DNA of 64,000 nucleotides, from assembly GCA_964359655.1 (NCBI GenBank), contig CAYHVI010000002.1, positions 176 to 64,175 on the forward strand. Direction: 5' to 3'. Under the pieces are notes generated by a model. The model saw only the letters and a list, made by a program, of their open reading frames with translations, searched no databases and was not told where the DNA came from. Both the position numbers and the translations under genes were made by a program. Positions 1 through 39,522 of this stretch are shown piece after piece (position 1 is the stretch's first letter; each line of letters begins with the position of its first letter). Source of the DNA: an uncultured Candidatus Saccharibacteria bacterium (lineage in GTDB: Bacteria > Patescibacteriota > Minisyncoccia > Minisyncoccales > UBA10102).

Positions 1-989
1 TCAAATTGTTCTGCTTGCTGCTTCATACGCTCTAACTGTTCTCTGGTTAGCTCGGTTTCAAACATCTTATCGAGTTGCGGATTGATTTTAAGCACGAGCG
101 TATGTCGCAAATAGCGCACAAGATTTTTGGTAAATTCCTGGGGGTCCATGCCCTGCTCTAAATTCTTGTTGAGAAAATCAATCGCCTCGCCTGCTTTTTT
201 GTCTGCCAAAAGCTGGACAAACTCGCCCACGAGATTAATATCCACGATGCCAAGCAAATCCTTTACTGTGTCGGCTGCAATTTCCTCTTTTATATCAAGA
301 AGAGAGTGAAAAGTCAAAACTTTGTCAAGTAAGCCCAAAGCGTCGCGCAGAGCACCGCTAGAGTTTAAAGCAATAAGTTGGAGCGCTTCCTTGTCGATTT
401 TCGCGTCTTCTGCTTTTGCGATTTCTTTGAGCTTGCCCATAATTTCAGGCACTGTGAGTTTGCGAAAATCAAAGCGCTGGCATCTCGATGCTATGGTGGA
501 AATCATTTTGTGGGCTTCAGTAGTAGCCAGCACAAATAGGACGTGCGAGGGCGGCTCCTCCAATGTTTTGAGCAAGGCGTTTGCAGCCTCTTTGGTGAGT
601 TGATGCGCCTCGTCAATGATAAATACTTTATATTTGAGTTTCGTGGGCGAGAATGCAATGCCCTCGCGCAATTCGCGCATCTCGTCGATTCCCCTATTGG
701 AGGCAGCGTCAATCTCAATTAAATCAATAGCGCGGCCGTGGTTTATTTCCTCGCACGCGTCGCATTTGTTGCATGGGTCGCCTTCTTTGGTGGATTTGCA
801 GTTTACTGCTTTGGCTAGGAGTCGGGCAAGGCTGGTTTTCCCTGACCCGCGTGGGCCCGCAAACAAATAGGCATGCGAAAGTAAATCCCCTGCCACTGCA
901 TTTTTGAGCGTTTGCACGACATGTTCTTGGCCCGTAACTTCGCTGAAAGACTTGGGACGATATTTTCGATAAAGCACCATGTTTGCCAT
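1..989 (-). CDS. dnaX: DNA polymerase III subunit gamma/tau, N-terminal part; the gene runs off the left edge
   Basis: Own minus-strand translation from ATG at 989: MANMVLYRKYRPKSFSEVTGQEHVVQTLKNAVAGDLLSHAYLFAGPRGSGKTSLARLLAKAVNC...CNKCDACEEI. Walker A is GPRGSGKT and a Cys zinc module is present. No stop occurs before position 1, so it is missing from the ORF track. Confidence 0.9.
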   Translation of the reverse strand, partial: MANMVLYRKYRPKSFSEVTGQEHVVQTLKNAVAGDLLSHAYLFAGPRGSGKTSLARLLAKAVNCKSTKEGDPCNKCDACEEINHGRAIDLIEIDAASNRGIDEMRELREGIAFSPTKLKYKVFIIDEAHQLTKEAANALLKTLEEPPSHVLFVLATTEAHKMISTIASRCQRFDFRKLTVPEIMGKLKEIAKAEDAKIDKEALQLIALNSSGALRDALGLLDKVLTFHSLLDIKEEIAADTVKDLLGIVDINLVGEFVQLLADKKAGEAIDFLNKNLEQGMDPQEFTKNLVRYLRHTLVLKINPQLDKMFETELTREQLERMKQQAEQF

Positions 990-992
990 ATT

Positions 993-1397
993 TTATTTTT
1001 GAAATACAAGGAATTTATATCCTGTGAAGTTCCATGTCATTACCACAAGTGTTCCGCCAATTGCTCCTATATTTGCCCAGACTTGTTGCGACAATCCAAA
1101 CTGCGGCCCCACCACATTTACGAGCAGTGAAGCCGTGCCCACGTTTAAGAACAAACCAACGGTAGCAATCGTAAGGAACTGGAAAAATACTTTTTTGTTT
1201 GAATGAAAAGTCCAATGCTTATTCCAAAAGTAGCTATTTCCCACCGCAACCAAAAAAGAGATTCCTTTGAATACCGTAAACGGCAAACCCGAGGCAATCG
1301 CAGTCAAAAAAATAAGGAGGTTGAGCACTGCCAAATCGCAGAGCGTGTTAGAGATTCCGACTATTACAAATTTAATAATCTGCCTCAAAACCTGCAT
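993..1397 (-). CDS. GtrA-family small membrane protein
   Basis: 134 aa with 4 predicted TM segments. Pattern FVIVGISNTLCDLAVLNLL ... NFTGYKFLVF is typical of GtrA-like proteins. Confidence 0.7.
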   Translation of the reverse strand: MQVLRQIIKFVIVGISNTLCDLAVLNLLIFLTAIASGLPFTVFKGISFLVAVGNSYFWNKHWTFHSNKKVFFQFLTIATVGLFLNVGTASLLVNVVGPQFGLSQQVWANIGAIGGTLVVMTWNFTGYKFLVFQK

Positions 1398-1436
1398 AGA
1401 CTCTATGGTAACATATGTGCTAAGATAAGGCTATCT

Positions 1437-2852
1437 ATGCTGAAGATTTACAGCACGCTTTCCCGAAAGAAAGAGATACTGAAGTCCAGAAAGAGTAAGA
1501 AAATAAACCTTTTTGTATGCGGGGTGACTACCTACGATTTCTCGCATTTGGGTCATGCGAGGACCTATATTGTTTTTGATATGATTGCAAAGTATCTGCG
1601 CCAGAGGAGGTACGATGTTTTCTATTTGCAGAATGTAACTGATGTAGATGACAAAATCATCAAGCGAGCGCGAGAGCAAGGTGAGGATTCAGGAAAGTTG
1701 GCTCGGAGGTTCGAAAAAGAGTATCTGGCAGATATGAAAACACTTGGCGTAAACGCTGTGAGCAAATATGCGAGAGCTACAGATTATATCCCAGAGATCA
1801 TGAACCAAGTGCAGCATTTGCTGGGAAAAGGATATGCTTATGAAATTGAGGGCGACGGGATTTATTTTGACATTTCCAAATTCAAAGAGTATGGGAAACT
1901 TTCTGGGCGTACCAAAGAGCAAGCGCAAGACGCCGTGTCGCGCATTGATGAATCAGTGAATAAGCGCAATAAGGGCGATTTTGCTTTATGGAAACTATCA
2001 AAACCCGGAGAGCCGAAATGGAAAAGCTCGTGGGGTTGGGGCAGGCCCGGATGGCACATTGAGGATACCGCCATTACCGAAAAGTTTTTCGGGCCGCAAT
2101 ACGATATTCACGGCGGCGCGCAGGATTTGATATTTCCTCATCACGAGGCAGAGGTTACGCAGATGGAATCGGTTTCGGGGAAGAAACCATTTGTGAAGTA
2201 TTGGATGCATACCGGGTTTTTGACAGTGAGGGGCGAGAAAATGTCAAAGTCTTTGGGAAATTTTGTAACCATTCGGGATTTTTTGAAAACGTATTCTCCC
2301 CGGCTTTTGCGATTTTTTGTCTTGAAAACTCATTGGCGATCCCCTATTGATTATTCGACGGAATTACTCGAACAATCACAGAGTGAACTTGGTCGTATCG
2401 ATGAGTTTGTTGACCGGCTTCAGGAAAAATCTCAAATCCACCCCTTCATCCGACGGGGTGCCCAGTCGCATGACTGGACAAATTCAAAATTAGCTCTCGA
2501 GAAAGCGATGGACGATGATTTTAACACGCCATTGGCAATTTCCGTGTTATTTGATCTGATCCGCAAAGGAAACACGATGGCAAACGAAGGGAGAATGACA
2601 AAGACAAGCGTAAAAGAAATTCTCGATTTTTTGAACGAAGTAGATGAATTCTTCGGTTTTATTTTTTGGGGCCGCGAAAAACAGCAGATTCCGGAAGATA
2701 TTAAAAAACTCGCAGACCAGCGCGAGCAGTTCAGAAAGAGTGAAAACTGGGAAAAAGCCGATGAGCTGCGCAAGGAACTTCAACGGAAGGGTTGGGCTAT
2801 TGAAGATATTCCCTCTGGCTGGAAATTGAAAAAGCTGGTATACCAAAGGTAA
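1437..2852 (+). CDS. cysS: Cysteinyl-tRNA synthetase
   Basis: HIGH-type motif (FSHLGHARTY) and KMSKS are present. Start moved to the internal ATG (MLKIYSTLSRKKE) because the track ORF N-terminus overlaps the GtrA gene antisense. Confidence 0.93.
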   Translation: MLKIYSTLSRKKEILKSRKSKKINLFVCGVTTYDFSHLGHARTYIVFDMIAKYLRQRRYDVFYLQNVTDVDDKIIKRAREQGEDSGKLARRFEKEYLADMKTLGVNAVSKYARATDYIPEIMNQVQHLLGKGYAYEIEGDGIYFDISKFKEYGKLSGRTKEQAQDAVSRIDESVNKRNKGDFALWKLSKPGEPKWKSSWGWGRPGWHIEDTAITEKFFGPQYDIHGGAQDLIFPHHEAEVTQMESVSGKKPFVKYWMHTGFLTVRGEKMSKSLGNFVTIRDFLKTYSPRLLRFFVLKTHWRSPIDYSTELLEQSQSELGRIDEFVDRLQEKSQIHPFIRRGAQSHDWTNSKLALEKAMDDDFNTPLAISVLFDLIRKGNTMANEGRMTKTSVKEILDFLNEVDEFFGFIFWGREKQQIPEDIKKLADQREQFRKSENWEKADELRKELQRKGWAIEDIPSGWKLKKLVYQR

Positions 2853-2854
2853 CT

Positions 2855-4255
2855 ATGTCAGAAACGAGAGATAAAAAATTTGATAAATTGCCGCCGCAGA
2901 GCATAGAGGCTGAAATGTCGCTTTTGGGAAGTTTAATGTTGGATAAGGAGGCCATTGTGAAAGTGGCAGATTTAATCGAGCCCCGGGATTTTTACAAGGG
3001 AATTCATCAAATTATTTTTGAGGCAATGCTTGACTTGTTTCAAAGAAATGAGCCAGTTGATTTGCTTTCGGTTTCGAGCCGCTTGAAAGACAAGGGAAAA
3101 ATTGAAGAAATCGGAGGCGGCAGCTACTTAACCGAGCTCATCAATACCGTGCCTACTGCCTCGCACGTATTAAGTTATGCCAAAACCGTGCAATCAAAGC
3201 GCATCTTGCGCGATTTAATTTCTACTTCCTACGAAATTGGCGAGATGGGGTATAACGAAACAGAAGATCCAAACGTACTGGTGGACCAGGCTGAACAAAA
3301 AATTTTCTCCATTGCCCAAAAGTCGCTCGCGCATAATTTCATACACATTAAAGAAGAACTCGAAGAGGCTTTTGAAAGGCTCGACCGCTTGTCGAAACAC
3401 GAAAAAGCCACGCGCGGCATTCCCACAGGCTTTGCGGATTTGGACAATTTGCTTTCTGGATTTCAGCGATCTGATTTAATCATTTTGGCAGCTCGACCTT
3501 CTCTGGGGAAATCTGCTTTGGCTTTGGATATTGCGCGCAGAGTAGCAGTGCAAGAGCGAATTCCGGTTGGCATGTTTAGCTTGGAAATGTCAAAAGATCA
3601 GTTAATTGATCGCATGATTGCAGCTCAAGGCAGCGTGGATTCCTGGCGTTTGCGCACGGGAAAACTTTCTTCCCAAGGCGAGGACAATGATTTTGTCCGC
3701 ATTCAAGAAGCGCTCGGCGTATTATCGGAAGCTCCGCTCTATATCGACGATACTGCTTCCCAAACCGTGCTTCGCATGCGAGCTATGGCGCGGCGTTTGC
3801 AGGCAAATCACGGTTTAGGTCTTGTTATTATCGATTATCTGCAGCTGGTTTTGCCGCAGAACAGTCAAACAAGCATTGTGCAGCAAGTTACAGAAATTTC
3901 TCGGCAGCTCAAGGGTTTGGCGCGCGAGCTCAACGTGCCAGTGCTTGCGATTTCACAACTTTCGCGCGCGGTGGAGCAGCGCTTTCCTCCTCGGCCTCGT
4001 CTTTCTGATCTTCGCGAGTCTGGCTCGCTTGAACAAGATGCCGACGTGGTAATGTTTATTTACCGCGAAGACAAATACAAAAAGCAAGAGGCAGATCAGA
4101 ACACAGGGAATGTGGCAGAGATTATTGTGGCAAAACACAGGAATGGCCCGATTGGTTCTGTAAAGCTGTACTTTAACCCCAATATCGTGAGTTTTTCTGA
4201 TCTCGACAAAACCCGGCAATACGAGGAAGGCGCTGAGCTGGTGGTAGATTTTTGA
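2855..4255 (+). CDS. dnaB: Replicative DNA helicase
   Basis: 466 aa. DnaB N-terminal domain (PPQSIEAEMSLLGSLM), Walker A ARPSLGKSA, and a RecA-like C-terminal domain. Confidence 0.95.
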   Translation: MSETRDKKFDKLPPQSIEAEMSLLGSLMLDKEAIVKVADLIEPRDFYKGIHQIIFEAMLDLFQRNEPVDLLSVSSRLKDKGKIEEIGGGSYLTELINTVPTASHVLSYAKTVQSKRILRDLISTSYEIGEMGYNETEDPNVLVDQAEQKIFSIAQKSLAHNFIHIKEELEEAFERLDRLSKHEKATRGIPTGFADLDNLLSGFQRSDLIILAARPSLGKSALALDIARRVAVQERIPVGMFSLEMSKDQLIDRMIAAQGSVDSWRLRTGKLSSQGEDNDFVRIQEALGVLSEAPLYIDDTASQTVLRMRAMARRLQANHGLGLVIIDYLQLVLPQNSQTSIVQQVTEISRQLKGLARELNVPVLAISQLSRAVEQRFPPRPRLSDLRESGSLEQDADVVMFIYREDKYKKQEADQNTGNVAEIIVAKHRNGPIGSVKLYFNPNIVSFSDLDKTRQYEEGAELVVDF

Positions 4256-4260
4256 ATCAT

Positions 4261-4866
4261 ATGTACCCAAAGTCAATCCAAAAGCTGATTGAAATATTTT
4301 CCCATTTTCCTACAGTTGGCCCGCGGGTAGCTAGCCGTTTTGTTTTCTATCTTCTCAAAGCGCAAGATAGCGAGATTGACGATTTCATCAAAGCGCTTCA
4401 CAACCTAAGAAAAGAGATTCGTCCGTGCACGTTTTGTTTCAATCCTTTTGACGTCAGAGACGACGAACAACAAACAGGACTTTGCGCAATTTGTCGCGAT
4501 GCCACGCGAGATATGACTCTTTTGTGTATCGTGGAGAAAGAAAGTGATTTGGAGCAATTGGAGAAAACGAAGCATTATCGCGGCCGTTATTTTCTCTTAG
4601 GCAAGATCAATGATATTTTAAGGAAAGAAGGCTTGCAAAGCATTAAAGCGCAAGAGTTAAAAAGTCGAATGGCAAACGAGATCAAAGAGGTTATTCTTGC
4701 GTTGAATCCTACAACAGAAGGCGAAGCTGGCGTGCTGTATTTGGAGCGCTTGTTGAAACCTTACGGCAAGAAAGTCACCCGCCTCGGCCGCGGTCTTCCC
4801 GTAGGAGGCGAGCTCGAATACGCAGACGACGAAACCATACGAGGCGCCCTCGAGGGCAGACGATAA
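4261..4866 (+). CDS. recR: Recombination protein RecR
   Basis: MYPKSIQKLIEIFSHFPTVGPRVASRFVFYLL, a C4 zinc finger (CTFC...CAIC) and a Toprim region. Confidence 0.92.
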   Translation: MYPKSIQKLIEIFSHFPTVGPRVASRFVFYLLKAQDSEIDDFIKALHNLRKEIRPCTFCFNPFDVRDDEQQTGLCAICRDATRDMTLLCIVEKESDLEQLEKTKHYRGRYFLLGKINDILRKEGLQSIKAQELKSRMANEIKEVILALNPTTEGEAGVLYLERLLKPYGKKVTRLGRGLPVGGELEYADDETIRGALEGRR

Positions 4867-4890
4867 TATGTTTAAAGCCCGGCGTTAAAC

Positions 4891-5448
4891 ATGGAATTAT
4901 TTCTTACTTCCTTATTCTGGTTTTTGGTAGCTGCGGTATTTGCTGTAGTTGAAATTGAGGTTGAAGGAAAGCACGGCTGGGCAGAGAAAACTTCCACTTG
5001 GTTCAGAACAAAGGGATTAGCTGCAAAATTGTATGGATTGGCAATGGGCGTGCCATGGTCACCTGCGAGAGAACTCCTGGTGCTTGCAATGTATTTTGTT
5101 TGGATGCCGACATGGGATTTTCTATGGTTTGTGTTAAACCCTTATTACGGAGTAAAAAAATTTAAAAAACAAAATGTATGGTGGCATAACCGCAGCCATT
5201 GGTTATTCAATATTACACCGCTTGATTATCTTTTTGGTTGGGGTTTATCAGTAATGCTTTCTGGACTTGCTGCTTGGTTGGCGTCTGATGGAGTCTTGTT
5301 GATCAGGCACTCTTACTTTATGATATGGTTTCTTTTCTTTACTGTTGTAACGATTCTTCTAGTGGCTCCGTTATACAAGCGCTGGCACGCAAAAATGCGC
5401 CAGCGCGATGACCGCGATAGTTCTGGCATTTTCCACCAAGAAGGTTAG
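4891..5448 (+). CDS. Hypothetical integral membrane protein
   Basis: 185 aa with several hydrophobic helices and no recognisable motif. Confidence 0.5.
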   Translation: MELFLTSLFWFLVAAVFAVVEIEVEGKHGWAEKTSTWFRTKGLAAKLYGLAMGVPWSPARELLVLAMYFVWMPTWDFLWFVLNPYYGVKKFKKQNVWWHNRSHWLFNITPLDYLFGWGLSVMLSGLAAWLASDGVLLIRHSYFMIWFLFFTVVTILLVAPLYKRWHAKMRQRDDRDSSGIFHQEG

Positions 5449-26000: not shown

Positions 26001-26261
26001 ACAAAATAAAAAGCTGTGGTATTTCCACAGATCAACAAAACGAAAACACATTTTCGTTTCATCCTAAATAGGGTTTATGATCTCTATCAAGATCACCTAT
26101 TGTCTGTGGATGGAAGAAAGCTACGGGATAGTTTGGATTGATAGATATATCATAATCGACCCGACATGATATTTCTACCGTACACCCAAGTGTAGGGTGA
26201 CTATCCCATAGCAGGCTCGAGGGGGATGTGGCCCTCCTAAAAAGGGGAAACAACTATCTTA

Positions 26262-33021: not shown

Positions 33022-33183
33022 TTACGCTGCCTTCCTCTTTCGGAGGGCTTTACATTTGAATAATCTTTCGAGTTGATGGAGTCGTCTCTCGCAGGGACCG
33101 CAGGGTTTTCTGTATTTTCTTGGGCATCCCATCAATTTCTGTCCAAGATTGATTATCTCTATTTCTTGAATCGCAAACATCAT
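33022..33183 (-). CDS. Basic Cys-containing mini-protein (53 aa), below the ORF-track cutoff
   Basis: SD AAGGAGAGGGGG precedes the ATG. Translation: MMFAIQEIEIINLGQKLMGCPRKYRKPCGPCERRLHQLERLFKCKALRKRKAA. Terminator 32984-33011 follows. Confidence 0.5.
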   Translation of the reverse strand: MMFAIQEIEIINLGQKLMGCPRKYRKPCGPCERRLHQLERLFKCKALRKRKAA

Positions 33184-33229
33184 TGCCCCCTCTCCTTATC
33201 CGATTTATTGAACGAACCAAAACAAAAAT

Positions 33230-33244
33230 CCAGCCCGCGGCTGG
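33230..33244 (-). terminator. Leader hairpin plus U-tract inside the 5' leader of the 53-aa ORF
   Basis: CCAGCCgcgGGCTGG followed by ATTTTTGTTTTGG on the minus strand. Confidence 0.5.
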
Positions 33245-33277
33245 AGTGCTATTGCGAAATGCCTTATCGTATTTCTC

Positions 33278-33364
33278 TTATGCAAAAGTCGCAACAAAAA
33301 TCTCACAGCCGGAAGGGCCTTGGAGACATGCACAGCCACAGCATGAAGAAATAATATAAGACAT
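33278..33364 (-). CDS. Leaderless Cys-rich mini-ORF (28 aa), candidate leader peptide
   Basis: ATG lies 7 nt after TATACT (promoter TTGACA 33394-33399, 16-nt spacer). Translation: MSYIISSCCGCACLQGPSGCEIFVATFA. Confidence 0.45.
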   Translation of the reverse strand: MSYIISSCCGCACLQGPSGCEIFVATFA

Positions 33365-33402
33365 TACGATCAGTATACTCGTTCAGAATTGCTTGTCAAC
33401 CC

Positions 33403-33457
33403 CAGAAAAAAATTGGGTGGAACTTCTTTGATTCTTTGAATCATTGAGGTTCCACCC
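33403..33457 (-). terminator. Rho-independent terminator of the DAHP synthase gene
   Basis: GGGTGGAACC...GTTCCACCC followed by AATTTTTTT on the minus strand. Confidence 0.75.
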
Positions 33458-33466
33458 TTACGGAAG

Positions 33467-34486
33467 TTACGCTTTGCGGTTTATCACAGCCCTGATTGGC
33501 CTAACCTGATCCATCATATTCGCGAAGTTCTCGAAGGTCAGCGACTGCGCGCCGTCGCACTTGGCGACGTCAGGGTTGGGATGCACCTCGACGATGAGGC
33601 CGTCGGCCCCCACTGCCGTCCCAGCCATTGCCAGCGGCGTCACCAGATACCACTTGCCGGTGCCGTGGCTGGGGTCAACGACGACGGGCAGATGGCTCAG
33701 CTTGTGGATTACCGGGATGGCGTTGAGGTCCAGGGTGTTGCGGGTGTAGGTCTCGAAGGTGCGGATGCCCCGCTCGGTCAGGATGACCTGATGGTTCCCC
33801 TCCTTCATCACGTACTCGGCGGCCAGGAGCCAGTCCTCGTAGGTGGCCGCGAAGCCCCGCTTCACCATCACGGGCTTGTCGGTCTTGCCCACCTCGTCCA
33901 GCAGGGGGAAGTTCTGCATGTTGCGAGCGCCGACCTGGAGCACGTCGGCGTAGCGATAGACCATCTCCACGTCGTTGGGCGACATGACCTCGGTGATGAT
34001 GGGCAGGCCGGTCTCCTGGCGGGCCTCGGCCAGTATCTTCAGCCCGTCCTCGCCCATGCCTCGGAAGCTGTAGGGGGATGTCCGAGGCTTGTAGGCCCCG
34101 CCGCGCAGCACCTGAGCGCCGGCCGCCTTGACCGCCCTGGCCGTCGTCAGCACCTGCTCCTCGTTTTCTACGGCGCAGGGGCCGGCGAACACTGCAAAGT
34201 GGCCCCCGCCGATCTTCACGCCATTGTCGCTTATGGTAACGATGGTATCCTCGGCGGAGAACTCGCGGCTAGCCAGCTTGTAGGGCTTGGATACGCGGAA
34301 CACCTCGCTCACGCCGCGCATCAGTTGAAGCTCATCCTGAAGCTCTGGGTACACCTGCCCCAGGACGGCCACGACCCTGCGCTCCACGCCGACGTTGAGC
34401 TGTCCCCGAAGTCCTTTCTCGGTTAAATGCCTTTGAACCCGTTCAATGTCTCCATTGCTCGCTCCTCTACCCATTACGACGATCAT
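33467..34486 (-). CDS. 3-deoxy-7-phosphoheptulonate (DAHP) synthase, type I-beta with N-terminal ferredoxin/ACT-like regulatory domain
   Basis: 339 aa from the ATG after AGGAGG. Translation MIVVMGRG...[10 protein letters not shown]...GPCAVE...[19 protein letters not shown]...VDPSH is co-linear with the Thermotoga-type enzyme. The gene is visibly GC-rich. Confidence 0.92.
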
Positions 34487-34585
34487 TCTCTTCCTCCTAA
34501 GTGCCACACTTCACTATCTGTAAAGCGCTAGAGATTATAAGTTTTTCTCTAGCGATGATTTTCAGAGACTAAAGACCATCGCTAA

Positions 34586-34623
34586 AGCTAAACGAAAACT
34601 CCGGCCGCTGTCGGCCGGAGTTT
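34586..34623 (-). terminator. Attenuator terminator in the DAHP synthase leader
   Basis: AAACTCCGGCCGacagCGGCCGGAGTTT followed by TCGTTT. Its left arm and loop (GCCGACAGCG) are complementary to CGCTGTCGGC inside the leader ORF (34674-34683). Confidence 0.7.
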
Positions 34624-34646
34624 AGTATCTTTAGAAAACTATGAGC

Positions 34647-34727
34647 TTATGCTCGTTTGGATACCAAAATCTTGCCGACAGCGTCGGTAAAGAAATAAAA
34701 GTATCCAAAGAATTGCTTCAAACCCAT
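34647..34727 (-). CDS. Phe/Tyr-rich leader peptide (26 aa)
   Basis: Own translation: MGLKQFFGYFYFFTDAVGKILVSKRA. Five Phe and two Tyr fall within 8 residues. The ATG lies 9 nt after the -10 box. Confidence 0.6.
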   Translation of the reverse strand: MGLKQFFGYFYFFTDAVGKILVSKRA

Positions 34728-34736
34728 ATTATGTAC

Positions 34737-34764
34737 AGTATACGCGATCAAGAGATGCTGTCAA
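34737..34764 (-). promoter_or_regulatory. Sigma70-type promoter of the DAHP synthase unit
   Basis: TTGACA, 16 nt, TATACT on the minus strand. Confidence 0.65.
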
Positions 34765-34858
34765 GACCAGAAGTGCTCGCACGGCAGAGATAGTTTCTCT
34801 TGCGAGAAACAGGAGAGAGTCTCGTACCGTGAGAGCGCTTCTAGTCCCGATGAAGAAA

Positions 34859-34887
34859 TTGACACCAGTCCTACACATTTCTATAAT
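34859..34887 (+). promoter_or_regulatory. Perfect-consensus divergent promoter
   Basis: TTGACA, 17 nt, TATAAT on the plus strand. The ATG at 34897 lies 9 nt after the -10 box. Confidence 0.65.
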
Positions 34888-34896
34888 GGAAGCATT

Positions 34897-35076
34897 ATGT
34901 GGATAATCAAGTGTGACATATGCAAGCGGCAAATTAAAGACGATTCCATAAAAGTGGGGCTTGGATTCTCGAAACGATTAGAGTTATGTCAAAAATGTGG
35001 GGCTCCGATTCTGCAATTTCTTAAAAAGAGCAAAGTTATAGAAGCTAAAGAGGAATCAAAACTCTATGGCATATGA
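34897..35076 (+). CDS. Zinc-ribbon mini-protein (59 aa), just below the ORF-track cutoff
   Basis: Own translation: MWIIKCDICKRQIKDDSIKVGLGFSKRLELCQKCGAPILQFLKKSKVIEAKEESKLYGI. Overlaps the next ORF by 11 nt. Confidence 0.5.
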   Translation: MWIIKCDICKRQIKDDSIKVGLGFSKRLELCQKCGAPILQFLKKSKVIEAKEESKLYGI

Positions 35077-35395
35077 TATCAAACAAATCATTGAGGAAAC
35101 CGCAAAGAAAACTGGGGAAGAAGTAAAACATCACATGGATGTGGTTGCTGAAGATTTGAAGGGGCAAATTCAGCAAGTTGCTGAAGGTGTTGTCGTTGCG
35201 AATGATCGGCTGGATCGTTTGGCAGAACTTCCTGATAAGGTTGATGCAATAAGAGATGATGTGGAGGTAATAAAGATTACTCTCGGGACCATTAAGAATG
35301 ATCTCAAGCAGAAGGTTGATCGCGATGAATTCGTTACTCTCGAAAAACGTGTAAGCATGCTCGAAGTAAGACTCAATCGCAGCACGCCCGCCTAA
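35066..35395 (+). CDS. Hypothetical coiled-coil protein, 109 aa
   Basis: Heptad-rich acidic sequence, translationally coupled to the 59-aa ORF. Confidence 0.5.
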   Translation: MAYDIKQIIEETAKKTGEEVKHHMDVVAEDLKGQIQQVAEGVVVANDRLDRLAELPDKVDAIRDDVEVIKITLGTIKNDLKQKVDRDEFVTLEKRVSMLEVRLNRSTPA

Positions 35396-35557
35396 TTTTT
35401 GAATTTTTCAAAGAACACTTCGACTCAATTCGTTCGCTTACTATAAACTCTCTCGAATCTCGTAAATCTACAACTCTGTTTGTTCTAAACTTGCGAGATT
35501 TTTGGAGCCTGGATGAAAATCTTGACTTCTGTTTCGATTAAGATAGGATATTCTTAT

Positions 35558-35851
35558 ATGGTAAAGAAAGTTCAAGCTAAGATTTTAAATTATCGGGTAA
35601 TCATTGAAAAGGAATATTATCCAGATGGCACTCCGGTATATACTGCTTTTGTTCCAACACTGGGAGTTGCTGATTATGGTCCAACCATTGATAAAGTGTT
35701 AAAGAGCTTGAAAGACGGTATTGAACTTGCAATTGAATGTCTCGTTGAAGAAAGAAAAGAAGTGCCCGTCGACAAAGTAGAGGAAACAATGGTTGTCCAT
35801 ACCCAGGTTTTGGCTCCAAAAAGCGCAAGGCTCGTATCTGCTTTAAAGTAA
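35558..35851 (+). CDS. hicB: HicB-like antitoxin (UPF0150 fold)
   Basis: MVKKVQAKILNYRVIIEKEYYPDGTPVYTAFVPTLGVADYGPTIDKVLKSLKDGIELAIE. Promoter is TTGACT, 16 nt, TAGGAT, with the ATG 8 nt after the -10 box. Confidence 0.7.
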   Translation: MVKKVQAKILNYRVIIEKEYYPDGTPVYTAFVPTLGVADYGPTIDKVLKSLKDGIELAIECLVEERKEVPVDKVEETMVVHTQVLAPKSARLVSALK

Positions 35852-35858
35852 AGCGTTA

Positions 35859-36080
35859 ATGAAATTTCCCTCGGACATTAAGCCAAAAGATGTCGTAAGA
35901 ACTTTGGAAAAGTTTGGTTTCCAAAGATATAAGAGCAAGGGTAGTCATCTTTATTTTCGACATCCGGACGGCAGGTGGACTCAAGTTGCAGTTCATCCAA
36001 AACCTATTCCCATGGGAACACTAAGGAAAATTCTTAATCAAGCGGAAATTGCACCTGAAGACTTCTTAAAACGCCTTTAG
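35859..36080 (+). CDS. hicA: HicA-family mRNA interferase toxin
   Basis: KPKDVVRTLEKFGFQRYKSKGSHLYFRHPDGRWTQVAVHPKPIPMGTLRKILNQAEI is a typical HicA/YcfA sequence. Confidence 0.8.
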   Translation: MKFPSDIKPKDVVRTLEKFGFQRYKSKGSHLYFRHPDGRWTQVAVHPKPIPMGTLRKILNQAEIAPEDFLKRL

Positions 36081-36089
36081 CTAACTTTT

Positions 36090-36335
36090 CTTTTTTCTCC
36101 TTCCGGACAATCAAGCCTCCCTTCACTTCGTTCAGGGTAAACTCTTAATCCCTGTTGCTGGAAGAACTCATTCGGCCAAAGAAATTTTATTTGAAGGTAC
36201 TTTGTTTTTCCTTTCACAGTGCACAACTTTCTGTTATGCACTCTGGTAGGATGGGCAAGGTTTGTTTGTAGGGAGTACTTTCGGTACTGTTCAAACCTCT
36301 CTTGCCCTAAAGGATATTCGGTTTTCCGGAGAGGC
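36090..36335 (-). repeat. Structured-leader family, copy A (diverged, no downstream ORF)
   Basis: Shares TTCTCCTTCCGGACAATCAAGCC, a CTCATTCGGCCAAAGAAATT-type segment, and a long outer stem GGGCAAG...CTTGCCC with copies B and C. Confidence 0.5.
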
Positions 36336-36709
36336 TAGTCTACAAAGGCCTCTACCGGCTCCTTTACCACGCCGTCCGTAGACGACGCGGTGTATACCTG
36401 TAGGTCCTCGTCCTCCTCGACGAGGTCACCTGCGGGTTCCTCCACTTCCTCGAAGTGGAAGTGGATGTTGACGACCGTGGTGGGGACGGGGATCGCGGGC
36501 CTATTGATCCAGGCCAGCACCACGGGGACCACTAGCGCCCCGAAGACGATGGCGGCCACTAGGCCTAGTCCCACTACCACCGTCCCGAGGGTGGCGATGG
36601 GCAGGACATCTTGCATGAGATCGGGGCTTAATCCCCGACTCATGAGCCCTATGAACACCGCGGCCATAGCGGCCGCAACAAAGATGATTAGTTTTCCTCG
36701 TGTGGACAT
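36335..36709 (-). CDS. Hypothetical GC-rich membrane protein with an acidic C-terminal tail, 124 aa
   Basis: SD GGAGGTGGA precedes the ATG. Translation starts MSTRGKLIIFVAAAMAAVFIGL..., with 2-3 TM segments and a tail EEVEEPAGDLVEEDEDLQ. Confidence 0.6.
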   Translation of the reverse strand: MSTRGKLIIFVAAAMAAVFIGLMSRGLSPDLMQDVLPIATLGTVVVGLGLVAAIVFGALVVPVVLAWINRPAIPVPTTVVNIHFHFEEVEEPAGDLVEEDEDLQVYTASSTDGVVKEPVEAFVD

Positions 36710-36721
36710 TTTGTCCACCTC

Positions 36722-36915
36722 CTGTCAAATTCCCTTCGGGATTTCTCCTTCCGGGTAGTCAAGCTCTTACAATTTTCGAGACTCTTTTGCCTGATTGCCC
36801 GAAAGGAATTTATTTCAATGTACTTTCCAACATTTCAGCCCTGCAAGAAGTCGAAGGGCTCAAGTATTGGGGCGAGTCGAGAATCATACATGATTTTCTC
36901 AACTCGCCCTCGCCA
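36722..36915 (-). repeat. Structured-leader family, copy B (5' leader of the 124-aa ORF)
   Basis: Minus-strand hairpins GGGCGAGUUG...CGACUCGCCC, GAGCCCU...AGGGCU and CCUUUCGGGCAAUCAG...CUUGACUACCCGGAAGG. Confidence 0.55.
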
Positions 36916-37191
36916 TCCTGCCGCGCTGGGTCAGGGCCTTGCTATTTCTCCCACACACGGTGTGTGGGTCTCATAGCAGCGAGCTGAACACTAATTCTCT
37001 TTGGATCTCTGTAATGAATCAATAAACTTGAAGATCAGATTAACTAATGTTCACTTCGTTGCTATGAATGTTTTGAAAAGAACTGTTTTAAACTCCCTGC
37101 CCCGTACTAATTTTGTTTTGCAAAATTTAGTACTGGGGTCTCGAATCTCGTAAATCGAGAACTTTTTTGTTCCAGACTTAAGATATTCTTG

Positions 37192-37234
37192 GAGCCTGGG
37201 GAAGGTAGCGCTTTCGCACTCCTTCCCCAGGCTC
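37192..37234 (-). terminator. 14-bp hairpin after the 110-aa ORF (no clear U-tract)
   Basis: GAGCCTGGGGAAGG...CCTTCCCCAGGCTC. Confidence 0.5.
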
Positions 37235-37239
37235 GCTTG

Positions 37240-37572
37240 TTAGGCGGAGGGTTCCGTCGTTGTTGCCTTTGCAGCGACTTCCTCCGTGGTGATGGTGATC
37301 TGCTCGCGGGCGTTCTCAAGCGCTCCCATGAGGGAAAGCAACCTGGCCGTCTCCACAGAAGCCATCTTGACCTCCACGATTTTAGGAGCGATTATATTTA
37401 TCTCTGCATCTTTCAATTGCGCGACGCAGAGAGTGATCGCTGTCAAATCTCGCGGGCTGAAGTTTTGCCTTTGTGTGGTGATCTGACCGGCACCGATATC
37501 CTTAAAACTCACCTTATATAGCCTTACTGTTGTACTGTTCTCTTCTTTTTGAAGGTCAACGATGAACTGCAT
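37240..37572 (-). CDS. Hypothetical 110-aa protein
   Basis: SD AGGAGG, 5 nt, ATG. Translation starts MQFIVDLQKEENSTTVRLYKVSFKDIGAGQITTQRQNF... Preferred over the antisense plus-strand ORF 37189..37521. Confidence 0.55.
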   Translation of the reverse strand: MQFIVDLQKEENSTTVRLYKVSFKDIGAGQITTQRQNFSPRDLTAITLCVAQLKDAEINIIAPKIVEVKMASVETARLLSLMGALENAREQITITTEEVAAKATTTEPSA

Positions 37573-37599
37573 TTTTTCCTCCTGGCGTCTTTGCGCCTA

Positions 37600-37800
37600 T
37601 AAAATGCCGGGCTAGGATTTCTCCTTCCGGACAATCAAACCTCCGCATAAGTCGAAGGACTGATTGCCCGAAAGGAATACTTGTCCTGAGCGTAGTCGAA
37701 GGATTTCAATGTACTTTCCAATATTTCAGCCCTGAACGAAGTCGAAGGGCTCAAGTATTGGGGCGAGTCGGTGATCCTAAGGATCTTCGCAACTCGTCCA
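37600..37800 (-). repeat. Structured-leader family, copy C (5' leader of the 110-aa ORF)
   Basis: Same three-hairpin layout as copy B. The distal part of hairpin 1 has a different sequence but still pairs (GAUCCUaAGGAUC versus AAUCAUguAUGAUU). Confidence 0.55.
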
Positions 37801-38127
37801 CGCTGGGGTTACTACATAGTAACCTCCTTTCTTCTCCTCGATTTCCTATAAGGAACCTAGAATACCAACATTATCCTGGATTCCTTCTTCAAGCTCACAA
37901 TGCGTGTTGCATTTTTTGCGTTCTTGAAGAAAGAATCCTTCACCCCTTATTTCATCTGCTTTATTATCTGTACCATGGTATTCTTAATGAAGTAGAATTG
38001 ATAACGTACTTTTCTCGATGCAATCTCTGAAATTCATGTCTTACTTTGAACTTCAGTGATTGGAGATCTCGGGTTGGCGTTGGCGCTCTGTTTTTAGATT
38101 TTGTTTTTGCCTTCCCGAGATCTCCTG

Positions 38128-38301
38128 CTACCGGCCTAGCGATGCCTTGAGCTTCGCTAAGCTCGGATCGCCGATGTCTATAATGTGCCCACACTGGGCA
38201 CATTCCCGGAACTCGCCGTAAATATCTCTGTTTTTTACCATGTCCCCTCGGCACCGGGGACATGCCTTGAAATTAACTTGGATGGAAGCCAGATGGAACA
38301 T
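38128..38301 (-). CDS. Zinc-ribbon mini-protein (57 aa), below the ORF-track cutoff
   Basis: SD GAGGAGG, 4 nt, ATG. Translation: MFHLASIQVNFKACPRCRGDMVKNRDIYGEFRECAQCGHIIDIGDPSLAKLKASLGR. Confidence 0.55.
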   Translation of the reverse strand: MFHLASIQVNFKACPRCRGDMVKNRDIYGEFRECAQCGHIIDIGDPSLAKLKASLGR

Positions 38302-38500
38302 GAGTCCTCCTCATTTTTTATTGAGCGCCCCGATGACCCTTACCCGTCATCGGGATGCTCACGGAGGTTTCTAGGTTCTTCTGTCCCTACGCCTTAGTCT
38401 ACATTTCATCTCTTGATCTTTTGTCTTTTAATCTAGACTTAGGTTTAGGGATGAGGGGTACGCGCAGATTTCTCCGTCGCGTCCCCTCGCCCTTTGGTCT

Positions 38501-38815
38501 TTACTTCCGTAAGACCTGTTCCTTCAATTCTGGATTGACGCTAACGTGCAGCCGCACGTCAGGTGGTCCAGAGTCCCCGAGTCTGGGGACAGAGGTGGAC
38601 TTTGTCACGTGTCCGAGAACCTGCCCCAACCTTGAAACCGTACAGAGAACTTCACCTGTTATGATTGCGTTCTGTACTATCATCGGCTCCACTGTTGACC
38701 ATGGAACCCTGAAGTCGGTTTCGGTTGTTGGGTGAATGGTTACACCCACTTTTCCCGCATCTTCGCGGAATGCTGCTTGAATCCCCTCAGGGAGACTATC
38801 GAAATAGAACGACAT
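38501..38815 (-). CDS. Hypothetical 104-aa protein
   Basis: SD AAGGAGGAAACG precedes the ATG. Translation starts MSFYFDSLPEGIQAAFREDAGKVGVTIHPTTETDF... Promoter TTGACA, 17 nt, TATACT at 39028-39056, with a ~205-nt leader. Confidence 0.55.
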   Translation of the reverse strand: MSFYFDSLPEGIQAAFREDAGKVGVTIHPTTETDFRVPWSTVEPMIVQNAIITGEVLCTVSRLGQVLGHVTKSTSVPRLGDSGPPDVRLHVSVNPELKEQVLRK

Positions 38816-39165
38816 CGTTTCCTCCTTCTTAAATATGCTTTCCCTTCTAATGACTTTGCTTGTCGTCAGAAGGCAGAGCACACTCATCTATAAGCACAAC
38901 AGCCCTCTTTGGGAGAGCTGTGTGGTTTAACGTACTTCTGTCTTAAATATAGATAGGCAAGTTTAGCTTTATTTTGGCCTCTCCCTGACCAATAAGCTTG
39001 TATATTCAATTTTCACTTTACTCTCATAGTATAGCATACTTCTAAAAAAATGTCAAGGGTTTTGTGGAGGGAACAAAAAACGCCCTATTTTGGCGGTTCT
39101 TATGTGGTTTGGTGTAGATTGATGGGGAGAGGAGAAGCGGTTCGCTCACTTCTCCTCTCCCTCTG

Positions 39166-39357
39166 TTAGACGACGCGGGTGATCTGCCCGGTTACCAGAT
39201 CTAAGGCGTATTGAGGAACCTTGTATCCCGGAGGAAGCTTGCCGCCAAAGCGGTAATTGGTCATGGCTCGAAGGACTCTGTCGGCCTGCGACGACAAGCC
39301 GAATCCTAGAAATCCACCTCTCGCTCGGTATCTCTTAGATGCAATGTCTCCGCGCAT
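39166..39357 (-). CDS. Hypothetical 63-aa protein
   Basis: SD GTGGAGA precedes the ATG. Translation: MRGDIASKRYRARGGFLGFGLSSQADRVLRAMTNYRFGGKLPPGYKVPQYALDLVTGQITRVV. Promoter TTGACA, 17 nt, TATCAT at 39456-39484. Terminator hairpin at 39125-39161. Confidence 0.5.
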   Translation of the reverse strand: MRGDIASKRYRARGGFLGFGLSSQADRVLRAMTNYRFGGKLPPGYKVPQYALDLVTGQITRVV

Positions 39358-39494
39358 TTTTTTCTCCACTTAAAATTTTGGATTACATTGGGGGGTATTT
39401 AAAAACTCTCAAGGTGCTGCTCCTTTCTGCTTCCTGTGAAAGCTTAAATTTTTAAATGATAGCATCGCATAAAAGTCGTGTCAATAGCTGTAGA

Positions 39495-39522
39495 GAAAGA
39501 CCCCTTTCATGGAGGGTCTTTC
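39495..39522 (-). terminator. Hairpin terminator immediately after rpsP (right border of the island)
   Basis: GAAAGACCCTCCATGAAAGGGGTCTTTC on the minus strand. Confidence 0.65.

Follow-up and report, generated by a model that had tools for sequence, protein, structure and literature searches.

A candidate cysteine-responsive leaderless attenuator within an array of leader-peptide units in a Patescibacteria genome

The trp, phe, his, leu, thr and ilv leaders of Escherichia coli are the classical leader-peptide transcription attenuators. Corynebacterium glutamicum has such leaders at trp, ilvB, leuA and aroF; a leader peptide can be made there without a ribosome-binding site, and aroF is preceded by a leader with an F-Y-F motif (PMC4046766). 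For cysteine, it was shown in Mycobacterium smegmatis that stalling on a leaderless poly-Cys small open reading frame (sORF) unmasks a sequestered ribosome-binding site, and the targets of such mycobacterial sORFs are genes of cysteine or sulfur metabolism (Canestrari et al. 2020, 10.1101/834739). Cys leader peptides were also predicted in Actinobacteria, where terminators were not found (PMC1262725). Cys-specific attenuators with a complete terminator and antiterminator are rare; one predicted class was found, uORFC-8-2 of Rhodobacterales, which lies upstream of cysS and has tandem Cys codons, a terminator stem and a U run (PMC8632094). Our full-text literature searches gave no report of leader-peptide attenuators in Patescibacteria (candidate phyla radiation, CPR), and in the papers searched no description of TrpR-linked attenuator arrays in these bacteria was found. 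Here, a stretch of 64,000 nucleotides (nt) from an uncultured Candidatus Saccharibacteria bacterium (contig CAYHVI010000002.1 of assembly GCA_964359655.1; hereafter the window) was analyzed. On its minus strand, a Cys-rich sORF with its own promoter is followed by a terminator-like hairpin and by an open reading frame (ORF) of 53 amino acids (aa). We consider it probable that this Cys unit is a functional ribosome-mediated transcription attenuator tuned to cysteine.

Like the classical attenuators, the Cys unit has a codon run for one amino acid, mutually exclusive 1:2, 2:3 and 3:4 hairpins and a terminator ahead of a gene. It differs from them in that it would sense cysteine, belongs to a Patescibacteria host, precedes an orphan 53-aa ORF and stands in a tandem array. 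With the mycobacterial sORFs it shares a first cistron predicted to be leaderless, consecutive Cys codons (a TGC TGT tandem at codons 8-9) and stalling as the proposed signal. The initial annotation had seen a device analogous to these mycobacterial elements. A Cys-responsive attenuator is indeed supported by the terminator, an antiterminator stronger than in shuffled controls, the switch model and the module context, and none of the computational tests capable of refuting it did so. The mycobacterial analogy needs qualification: unlike the mycobacterial and actinobacterial elements the Cys unit has a full terminator and antiterminator, and it has no sequence relationship to them. Since it has a full intrinsic terminator, it would work like a trp-type attenuator and not as a relative of the mycobacterial elements. 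Further, its downstream ORF is an orphan and no cysteine-metabolism gene lies within the unit, in contrast to the mycobacterial targets and to the cognate targets of attenuators. The uORF of uORFC-8-2 is not leaderless, has two tandem Cys codons and is linked to cysS, whereas the leader of the Cys unit is leaderless and has four Cys codons in six. Compared to other TrpR-linked arrays of Patescibacteria, the Cys unit shows all features of an array member and differs in its Cys type. In sequence, target and Rfam model it corresponds to none of the published systems named above. The mechanism itself is textbook; what makes the unit notable is its host lineage, its place in an array and a target outside biosynthesis.

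The promoter of the Cys unit is of the sigma-70 type and was found on the minus strand at 33399-33372, just downstream of the terminator of a 3-deoxy-D-arabino-heptulosonate 7-phosphate (DAHP) synthase gene. It comprises a -35 element TTGACA (33399-33394), a 16-nt spacer and a -10 element TATACT (33377-33372), matches the consensus at 11 of 12 positions, and has the hexamers and spacing of the sister modules described below. Between the -10 element and the ATG at 33364 lie 7 nt (GATCGTA), as already noted in the initial annotation, and a Shine-Dalgarno (SD) sequence is absent. From this spacing we infer that the transcript starts at or 1 nt before the AUG. The leaderless leader ORF of 28 codons, MSYIISSCCGCACLQGPSGCEIFVATFA, extends from 33364 to its stop codon at 33280-33278, and an in-frame TGA is located upstream at 33385-33383. 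Its five Cys codons, four of them within six codons as initially counted, comprise C8, C9, C11 and C13 in the presumed regulatory run TGC TGT GGC TGT GCA TGT (codons 8-13, 33343-33326) and C20 at 33307-33305. Direct reading of the sequence showed a tandem GCTGTG GCTGTG inside the run. An aromatic YYFF run is present in another frame of the leader, but this frame lacks a start codon.

The sORF might itself encode the product of the unit, be it the precursor of a ribosomally synthesized and post-translationally modified peptide (RiPP), a metal-binding peptide or a membrane peptide, with the downstream ORF being unrelated. It has a strong promoter and a terminator of its own, its peptide is hydrophobic and Cys-rich like some modified-peptide precursors, and in one relative (locus L090) a YcaO-ThiF-nitroreductase cluster lies close to the TrpR-like gene. 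However, the Cys run is N-proximal and a leader/core layout is absent, and the codon-usage score of the sORF is negative (-10.6), as expected if the ORF is regulatory and does not encode a protein for the sake of the product. Its architecture is identical to that of the Phe/Tyr, Ile and Leu/Val leaders of the window, a separate promoter for the downstream ORF is absent, and the ribosome-position switch described below would be unexpected for a plain peptide gene. No YcaO, lanthipeptide (LanB/C/M) or radical-SAM enzymes were found among the Pfam-annotated genes of the 64-kb window, and the RiPP reading was rejected on this ground. A peptide product is therefore regarded as very unlikely. In L090, positions 1-5300 hold a cluster of YcaO, ThiF-like, nitroreductase-like and methyltransferase genes with several 46-66-aa ORFs and the TrpR-like gene just downstream; this is likely an azoline-type RiPP locus of a Paceibacterota genome, and nothing comparable is present in the window.

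The terminator-like hairpin seen initially downstream of the sORF was identified as an intrinsic terminator (33246-33216, minus strand), which begins 32 nt after the leader stop codon. Its stem of 7 bp, five of them G-C, pairs 33245-33239 with 33235-33229 (UCCAGCC/GGCUGGA, loop GCG) with a hairpin energy of -10.7 to -11.5 kcal/mol, and is directly followed by UUUUUGUUUUGG (33228-33217) in a U-tract (UUUUUGUUUU) that extends over 33228-33216 and has 9 U in 11 nt. Three regions of the leader transcript compete for pairing. Region 1, GUCUCCAAGGCC (33327-33316, codons 13-17), overlaps the last Cys codon of the run. Region 2, CCGGCUGUGAGAU (33312-33300, codons 18-22), is the antiterminator strand, contains C20 and resembles the right arm of the terminator with one extra U. 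Region 3, CUCCAGCCG (33246-33238), is the left arm of the terminator plus its flanks. For the antiterminator, a 6-bp pairing of CGGCUG with CAGCCG had been proposed; this pairing was found again, but its extent had been underestimated, as folding gave 9 bp with one bulge between CGGCUG(U)GAG (33311-33302, codons 18-21) and region 3, together with an inner 9-bp helix (UUGUUGCGA, 33298-33290, with UCGCAAUAG, 33257-33249) that encloses the stop codon. The antiterminator duplex (-15 to -16 kcal/mol) is stronger than the terminator hairpin (-10.7 kcal/mol) and than the mean of duplexes with composition-matched shuffles of the upstream RNA (-9.6 to -11.3 kcal/mol; p ~0.03; -15.9 compared to -11.3 kcal/mol gave p=0.035), and with antiterminator and inner helix combined the RNA 3' of a stalled ribosome folds at -24.9 kcal/mol. 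The 1:2 hairpin, formed by regions 1 and 2, has -10.8 kcal/mol, and the whole leader hairpin is contained in a minimum free energy fold of -47 kcal/mol. In the ribosome-free fold, region 2 is held by region 1 and by a long stem that joins the start-codon region to the region after the stop codon, and the terminator forms. In Rfam searches only tRNAs reached the gathering score in the window, and 33200-33400 gave nothing with an E-value of 5 or below.

To model the effect of the ribosome on these structures, the RNA was made unavailable for pairing as far as 13 nt beyond the A-site codon and was folded at equilibrium. Without a ribosome, the probability of the terminator was 0.98. With the A site at any of codons 1-12 it was 0.26 or less, at C13 it was 0.35, and it rose to 0.84 at L14 and to 0.98 from codon 15 to the stop codon. 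According to this profile, the codons of the Cys run are precisely the last ones where a ribosome pause favours read-through. When the leader between codon 14 and the terminator was shuffled, such a switch appeared in 1 of 200 shuffles. The Phe/Tyr module located before the DAHP synthase gene switched likewise, with permissive codons 4-11 for a run at codons 6-13. The model is supportive of a ribosome-operated switch, but is not proof of it.

To what extent the Cys run stands out from chance can be judged from the window itself. Cys is the rarest residue in its 27 confidently coding genes (0.46% of 12,597 residues), and at least five Cys in 28 residues have a binomial probability of ~2e-7, a ~39-fold excess. 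Of the 1009 six-frame ORFs of the window with 20 aa or more, the Cys leader was the only one with at least four Cys in six codons. A chance ORF within an untranslated small RNA or 5' region, with Cys codons devoid of meaning, would nevertheless fit the simple GCTGTG duplication inside the run, and Cys-dense hexapeptides occur at four other places in the six-frame translation (five distinct sites compared to ~0.9 expected in shuffles), so that the Cys run alone is not decisive. The decisive point is that the run occurs together with an ATG placed in leaderless fashion behind a consensus promoter and with a terminator 32 nt past the stop codon. There are only ~7 near-perfect promoters in the 64 kb, and the Cys ORF begins 7 nt after one of them; its stop codon lies just ahead of one of ~29 terminator-like sites. 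As a rough estimate, the joint chance of this coincidence is ~1e-5 or below. The scarcity of the switch among shuffles speaks against chance as well, as does the array: of all Phe/Tyr and Ile runs in the window, the most extreme ones are found in its other members, identically built units on the same strand 1.3 kb up- and downstream. A chance origin is thus scarcely credible.

For the Cys unit we propose the following mechanism. RNA polymerase would start at or 1 nt before the AUG, and a ribosome would bind the 5' end directly and translate the sORF. With plentiful Cys-tRNA(Cys), the ribosome would pass codons 8-13 and move towards the stop codon. Region 2 would then be covered by the ribosome or pair with region 1 again, the terminator hairpin (33245-33229) would form together with its U-tract, and transcription would stop after ~150 nt. 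With scarce charged tRNA(Cys), the ribosome would stall in the Cys run, cover region 1 and open the 5' leader stem. Region 2 and the inner helix could then capture the left arm of the terminator, no terminator would form, and read-through would reach the SD-led 53-aa ORF, which is presumed to be the functional output, before a second strong terminator ends the unit. Alternatively, cysteine could act on translation as in mycobacteria, with stalling exposing the SD of the 53-aa ORF and the hairpin being mainly structural. The described mycobacterial precedent is translational (10.1101/834739), and in one fold (33370-33185) the U-tract pairs weakly with the purine-rich SD region. This pairing, however, is expected from base composition alone, whereas the hairpin has the full signature of a terminator, a G+C stem followed by the U-tract, as it does in all sister modules. 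Control at the level of translation is accordingly considered highly improbable.

The lineage in which the Cys unit occurs evidently uses leaderless leader-peptide attenuators. Next to the unit, a TrpR-like protein is encoded whose many relatives carry the labels Yanofskybacteria, Paceibacterota, Parcubacteria and Peregrinibacteria, and 87 loci around TrpR-like genes were scanned for run-bearing short ORFs that end just before a terminator. Such leader units were found in about two dozen of the 87 loci, often several in a row, and were of the types W, F, F/Y, L, I and ILV. WWW leaders (e.g. MATERDKNGNTMIWWWVLQA) and FFFFF leaders were found, as were F/Y leaders that resemble the one of the window (e.g. 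NFFFGFYFF with the terminator CCCGGCCGACAGCGGCCGGG), Leu leaders (LLGLLLNLLLGK), Ile leaders (QIIIIEII) and ILV leaders whose terminator CCUCCCAGCCAGGGAGG resembles that of the window. In units with clear promoters the ATG follows the -10 element by 7-12 nt; the leaders have 20-37 aa, the stop codon is 19-44 nt from the hairpin, and the antiterminator segment usually starts 3-5 codons after the run. With 7 nt, 28 aa, 32 nt and a segment starting at codon 18, the Cys unit matches the geometry of the 28 other modules. In most of the 29 units the antiterminator duplex was stronger than in shuffles (p ≤0.05), and the Cys unit is typical in this respect. The WWW unit of L090 has the textbook 1:2, 2:3 and 3:4 arrangement (UGGGUUUUGC, GCAAAGCCCA, UGGGCUUUGC). 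In the ILV class, a compensatory change from C-G to U-A was observed between L118 (GGCUGGGAG with CUCCCAGCC) and L123 (GGUUGGGAG with CUCCCAACC), which supports the antiterminator for this class only. Cognate targets are present in some loci of the relatives: F/Y leaders precede DAHP synthase, WWW leaders anthranilate synthase component I (trpE), FFFFF leaders prephenate dehydratase (pheA), and a Leu leader a stand-alone LeuA allosteric domain. TrpR-like genes adjoining arrays carry the operator GTACTAGTAC.

Arrays of two to four leaders downstream of TrpR-like genes were seen in L095-L174, especially in L101, L105, L108/L109, L118, L123 and L131. Many leaders of the relatives precede short, mutually dissimilar ORFs that often bear CxxC motifs and whose G+C content (GC) is often 5-15 points above the contig average. 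These short ORFs are either real, fast-evolving small proteins or remnants of gene loss.

Cys-dense sORFs in the 87 loci were off-frame or random only; MGRKHSSFCAYLCISSSH, for instance, is the wrong frame of a WW leader. A contig search with the DAHP synthase gave only distant Dehalococcoidia and other loci without leaders, and the enzyme itself appears to be a recently acquired foreign ORF. Contigs with identical or 90%-identical proteins belonged either to the same population or to unrelated GC-rich organisms. Within the population, the Cys unit is 100% identical across several independent assemblies. Over 6.4 kb, 10 positions distinguish L084 from the window; all of them lie outside the Cys unit, and these population variants are uninformative. 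The contigs carrying window proteins derive from Hainich (Hain_H51) groundwater samples.

The only candidate for a regulated product is the basic, Cys-containing 53-aa ORF that had also been noted initially, MMFAIQEIEIINLGQKLMGCPRKYRKPCGPCERRLHQLERLFKCKALRKRKAA (33183-33022, minus strand), which has 4 Cys (7.5%) and 14 Lys/Arg. It starts 33 nt after the U-tract and is preceded by a strong SD in the region AAGGAGAGGGGG (33197-33186), with no room in the sequence for a promoter between terminator and SD. Downstream, a second terminator with a 12-13 bp stem and a T-run (33013-32972, minus strand; -16.1 kcal/mol) closes the Cys unit ahead of the TrpR-like gene's own promoter (32959). The read-through segment is not unusually structured (z = +1.27), which fits an mRNA, and a structured RNA in this segment was rejected on the same value. 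The GC of the ORF (0.426) is at the native level (0.438 for the window), which ruled out a remnant of a foreign gene. Neither Pfam nor a tblastn search of the 87 related loci gave a match, and AlphaFold2 returned a low-confidence two-helix model with a predicted local distance difference test score of 57. The cysS gene of the window (1203-2852, plus strand) is located 30 kb from the Cys unit and is not its target.

The unit might also be a relic or a drifting module, an attenuator of the array whose regulated gene was lost and for which the 53-aa ORF is a remnant or a chance ORF, so that the switch could persist without useful output. An orphan ORF with a weak codon score that no gene caller recognized would fit this, and so would the Cys type, which is present in this window only when compared with the 87 loci. 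Leaders of the relatives that stand before dissimilar short ORFs or before intact trpE, pheA or DAHP synthase genes likewise fit gene loss behind retained leaders. Against a relic, the promoter and ATG, the Cys run with its switch geometry, the strong SD and the closing terminator are intact throughout, several independent assemblies of the population show an identical sequence, and the codon score of the 53-aa ORF is the best of the three frames and above 97% of off-frame controls. We consider a relic unlikely.

Several observations weigh against a functional Cys-tuned attenuator. The terminator stem is short (7 bp), and the p-value of the antiterminator is modest (~0.03). In the folding model, the Ile sister module adopted the antiterminator fold even without a ribosome and the Leu/Val module showed no switch, from which it follows that equilibrium folding is an imperfect guide. 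A Cys-unit orthologue was absent from the 87 related Patescibacteria loci, so that evidence from conservation or covariation is lacking for the Cys unit itself. Homologues of the 53-aa ORF were absent from 5.8 billion clustered proteins in a word-indexed search, and an exhaustive HMMER search of 1.84 billion representative proteins found none either. Gene callers left the ORF uncalled on three assemblies, and its codon score is lower than that of all true-frame controls. It has no evident link to cysteine metabolism other than its Cys content (4/53), and the induction of a product with 7.5% Cys under Cys shortage would be counter-intuitive. Finally, to our knowledge neither leaderless translation nor the coupling of transcription and translation has been demonstrated in Patescibacteria.

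Three sister modules with the same layout were found on the minus strand of the window. The Phe/Tyr module (34764-34596) has a TTGACA-16-TATACT promoter, the leaderless leader MGLKQFFGYFYFFTDAVGKILVSKRA (34727-34647) and a terminator at ~34621-34598, and lies upstream of the DAHP synthase gene (34486-33467, 340 codons); it resembles the F-Y-F leader of C. glutamicum aroF. The Ile module (32095-31899) with the leader MSLRNLIIIIITILMPQKLGVIFLHK (32036-31956) and the terminator CCUCCCAGCUGGGAGG lies upstream of a 73-aa ORF (31817-31596), and the Leu/Val module (31195-31008) with the leaderless leader MQTILNLTEQVLVLMLILVQPLWLGDLRYAYVR (31160-31059) and a terminator at ~31035-31012 lies upstream of a 55-aa ORF (30901-30734). 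Descent of the Cys unit from Phe-type leaders was considered and rejected: the CCAGCC...GGCUGG terminators are shared, but otherwise the alignment covers only promoter and terminator ends. A fifth unit (30583-30360, minus strand) has a TTGACA-17-TATACT promoter and, 8 nt later, the ATG of a 39-aa ORF, MEIGYSQIRLMSHDTPVAFAQKMAMFGIGRSLCKGFYKI, without an amino-acid run, which shows that not every unit of the array resembles an amino-acid sensor. Its ORF is followed by a hairpin without a good U-tract and then by a 43-aa ORF of the CxxC...CxxC type.

Patescibacteria are usually described as lacking amino-acid biosynthesis. If the Cys unit works as modelled, a compact array would monitor tRNA charging for several amino acids, with sensing partly wired to small proteins of unknown function and not to biosynthetic enzymes. 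This would offer an entry point to how ultra-small symbionts perceive the nutrient supply from their hosts, as well as a set of short, self-contained amino-acid-responsive switches. A further-reaching and tentative idea, which we rate as rather doubtful, is that the array is a multi-channel starvation sensor of an amino-acid-dependent episymbiont that no longer serves biosynthesis. Its channels would be Phe/Tyr, Cys, Ile and Leu/Val in the window and Trp, Phe, Leu and Ile in relatives, and at low charged tRNA the leaders would gate tiny, fast-evolving, often CxxC-containing or basic proteins that act as regulators or effectors, e.g. to arrest growth or to interact with the host. In addition, foreign ORFs would land in the array and come under native amino-acid control, the 63%-GC DAHP synthase being an example.

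The DAHP synthase ORF has 62.8% GC, compared to 43.8% for the window, and its DNA is 88.7% identical to a gene that lies in an unrelated gene neighbourhood on a contig of 62% GC (L085/L086). The homology begins at 34487, one nucleotide ahead of the start codon, and stops at 33480, 13 nt short of the stop codon, and the gene looks like a recent, ORF-precise capture of foreign DNA under a native attenuator. In the relative L105, a homologous leader lies ahead of a different type of DAHP synthase.

The TrpR-like gene (32920-32609, minus strand; promoter 32959) is located ~100 nt downstream of the Cys unit. It is itself leaderless, and the palindrome CGTACTAGTACG covers its -10/+1 region (32911-32936). 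A second copy of the palindrome, ATATCGTACTAGTACAATG (32558-32583), lies ahead of a leaderless ORF of 34 aa (32567-32463) that overlaps with a 107-aa ORF (32463-32140) at the start of the latter; for the 107-aa ORF, a homologue is present in L123 (E 5e-13). In relatives (loci L088, L090, L093 and L094) a WWW leader peptide plus terminator comes after the second operator, an arrangement that combines repressor and attenuator as in the E. coli trp operon; the copy after the second operator in the window is without Trp codons.

The whole array is part of a ~9.4-kb insert (30100-39500) between rpsP (39894-39526) and the KH-protein/trmD genes (30068-29008), which are usually contiguous with rpsP and are split here by this insert of small genes. 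Also located in the insert are an Lrp/AsnC ligand-binding domain that stands alone (31488-31261), hicB/hicA (35513-36080) and several orphan ORFs, among them one of 60% GC (36718-36335). Nearly all small genes of the insert are equipped with a consensus promoter and a terminator of their own. Direct repeats of three families were found in it: 27-nt repeats at 36094-36120, 36742-36768 and 37618-37644, just before three ORF starts, which read (C/T)TTGA(T/C)T..CCGGAAGGAGAAA on the minus strand; a 77-nt repeat with 91% identity (36812-36888, 37703-37779); and a ~60-nt repeat with 82-87% identity (35451-35512, 37139-37199). These repeats suggest duplicated gene-upstream cassettes.

Just after the 55-aa ORF of the Leu/Val module, ARAGORN called a tRNA-Ile (GAT) at 30648-30724 on the minus strand. 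The Rfam tRNA model stayed below its gathering score there, and the best match was to tRNA-Sec with 23.7 bits; the element may be a degenerate or unusual tRNA or the remnant of an integration site. Outside the insert, a terminator-like hairpin was found at ~26030-26160 (minus strand) upstream of rplJ (25965-25450) and the L10-L7/L12 genes. An upstream segment pairs with its left arm at -12.9 kcal/mol compared to -7.8 kcal/mol in shuffles (p ~0.003), and although no Rfam model matched at gathering score, this hairpin may be an autoregulatory element of the L10-leader type.

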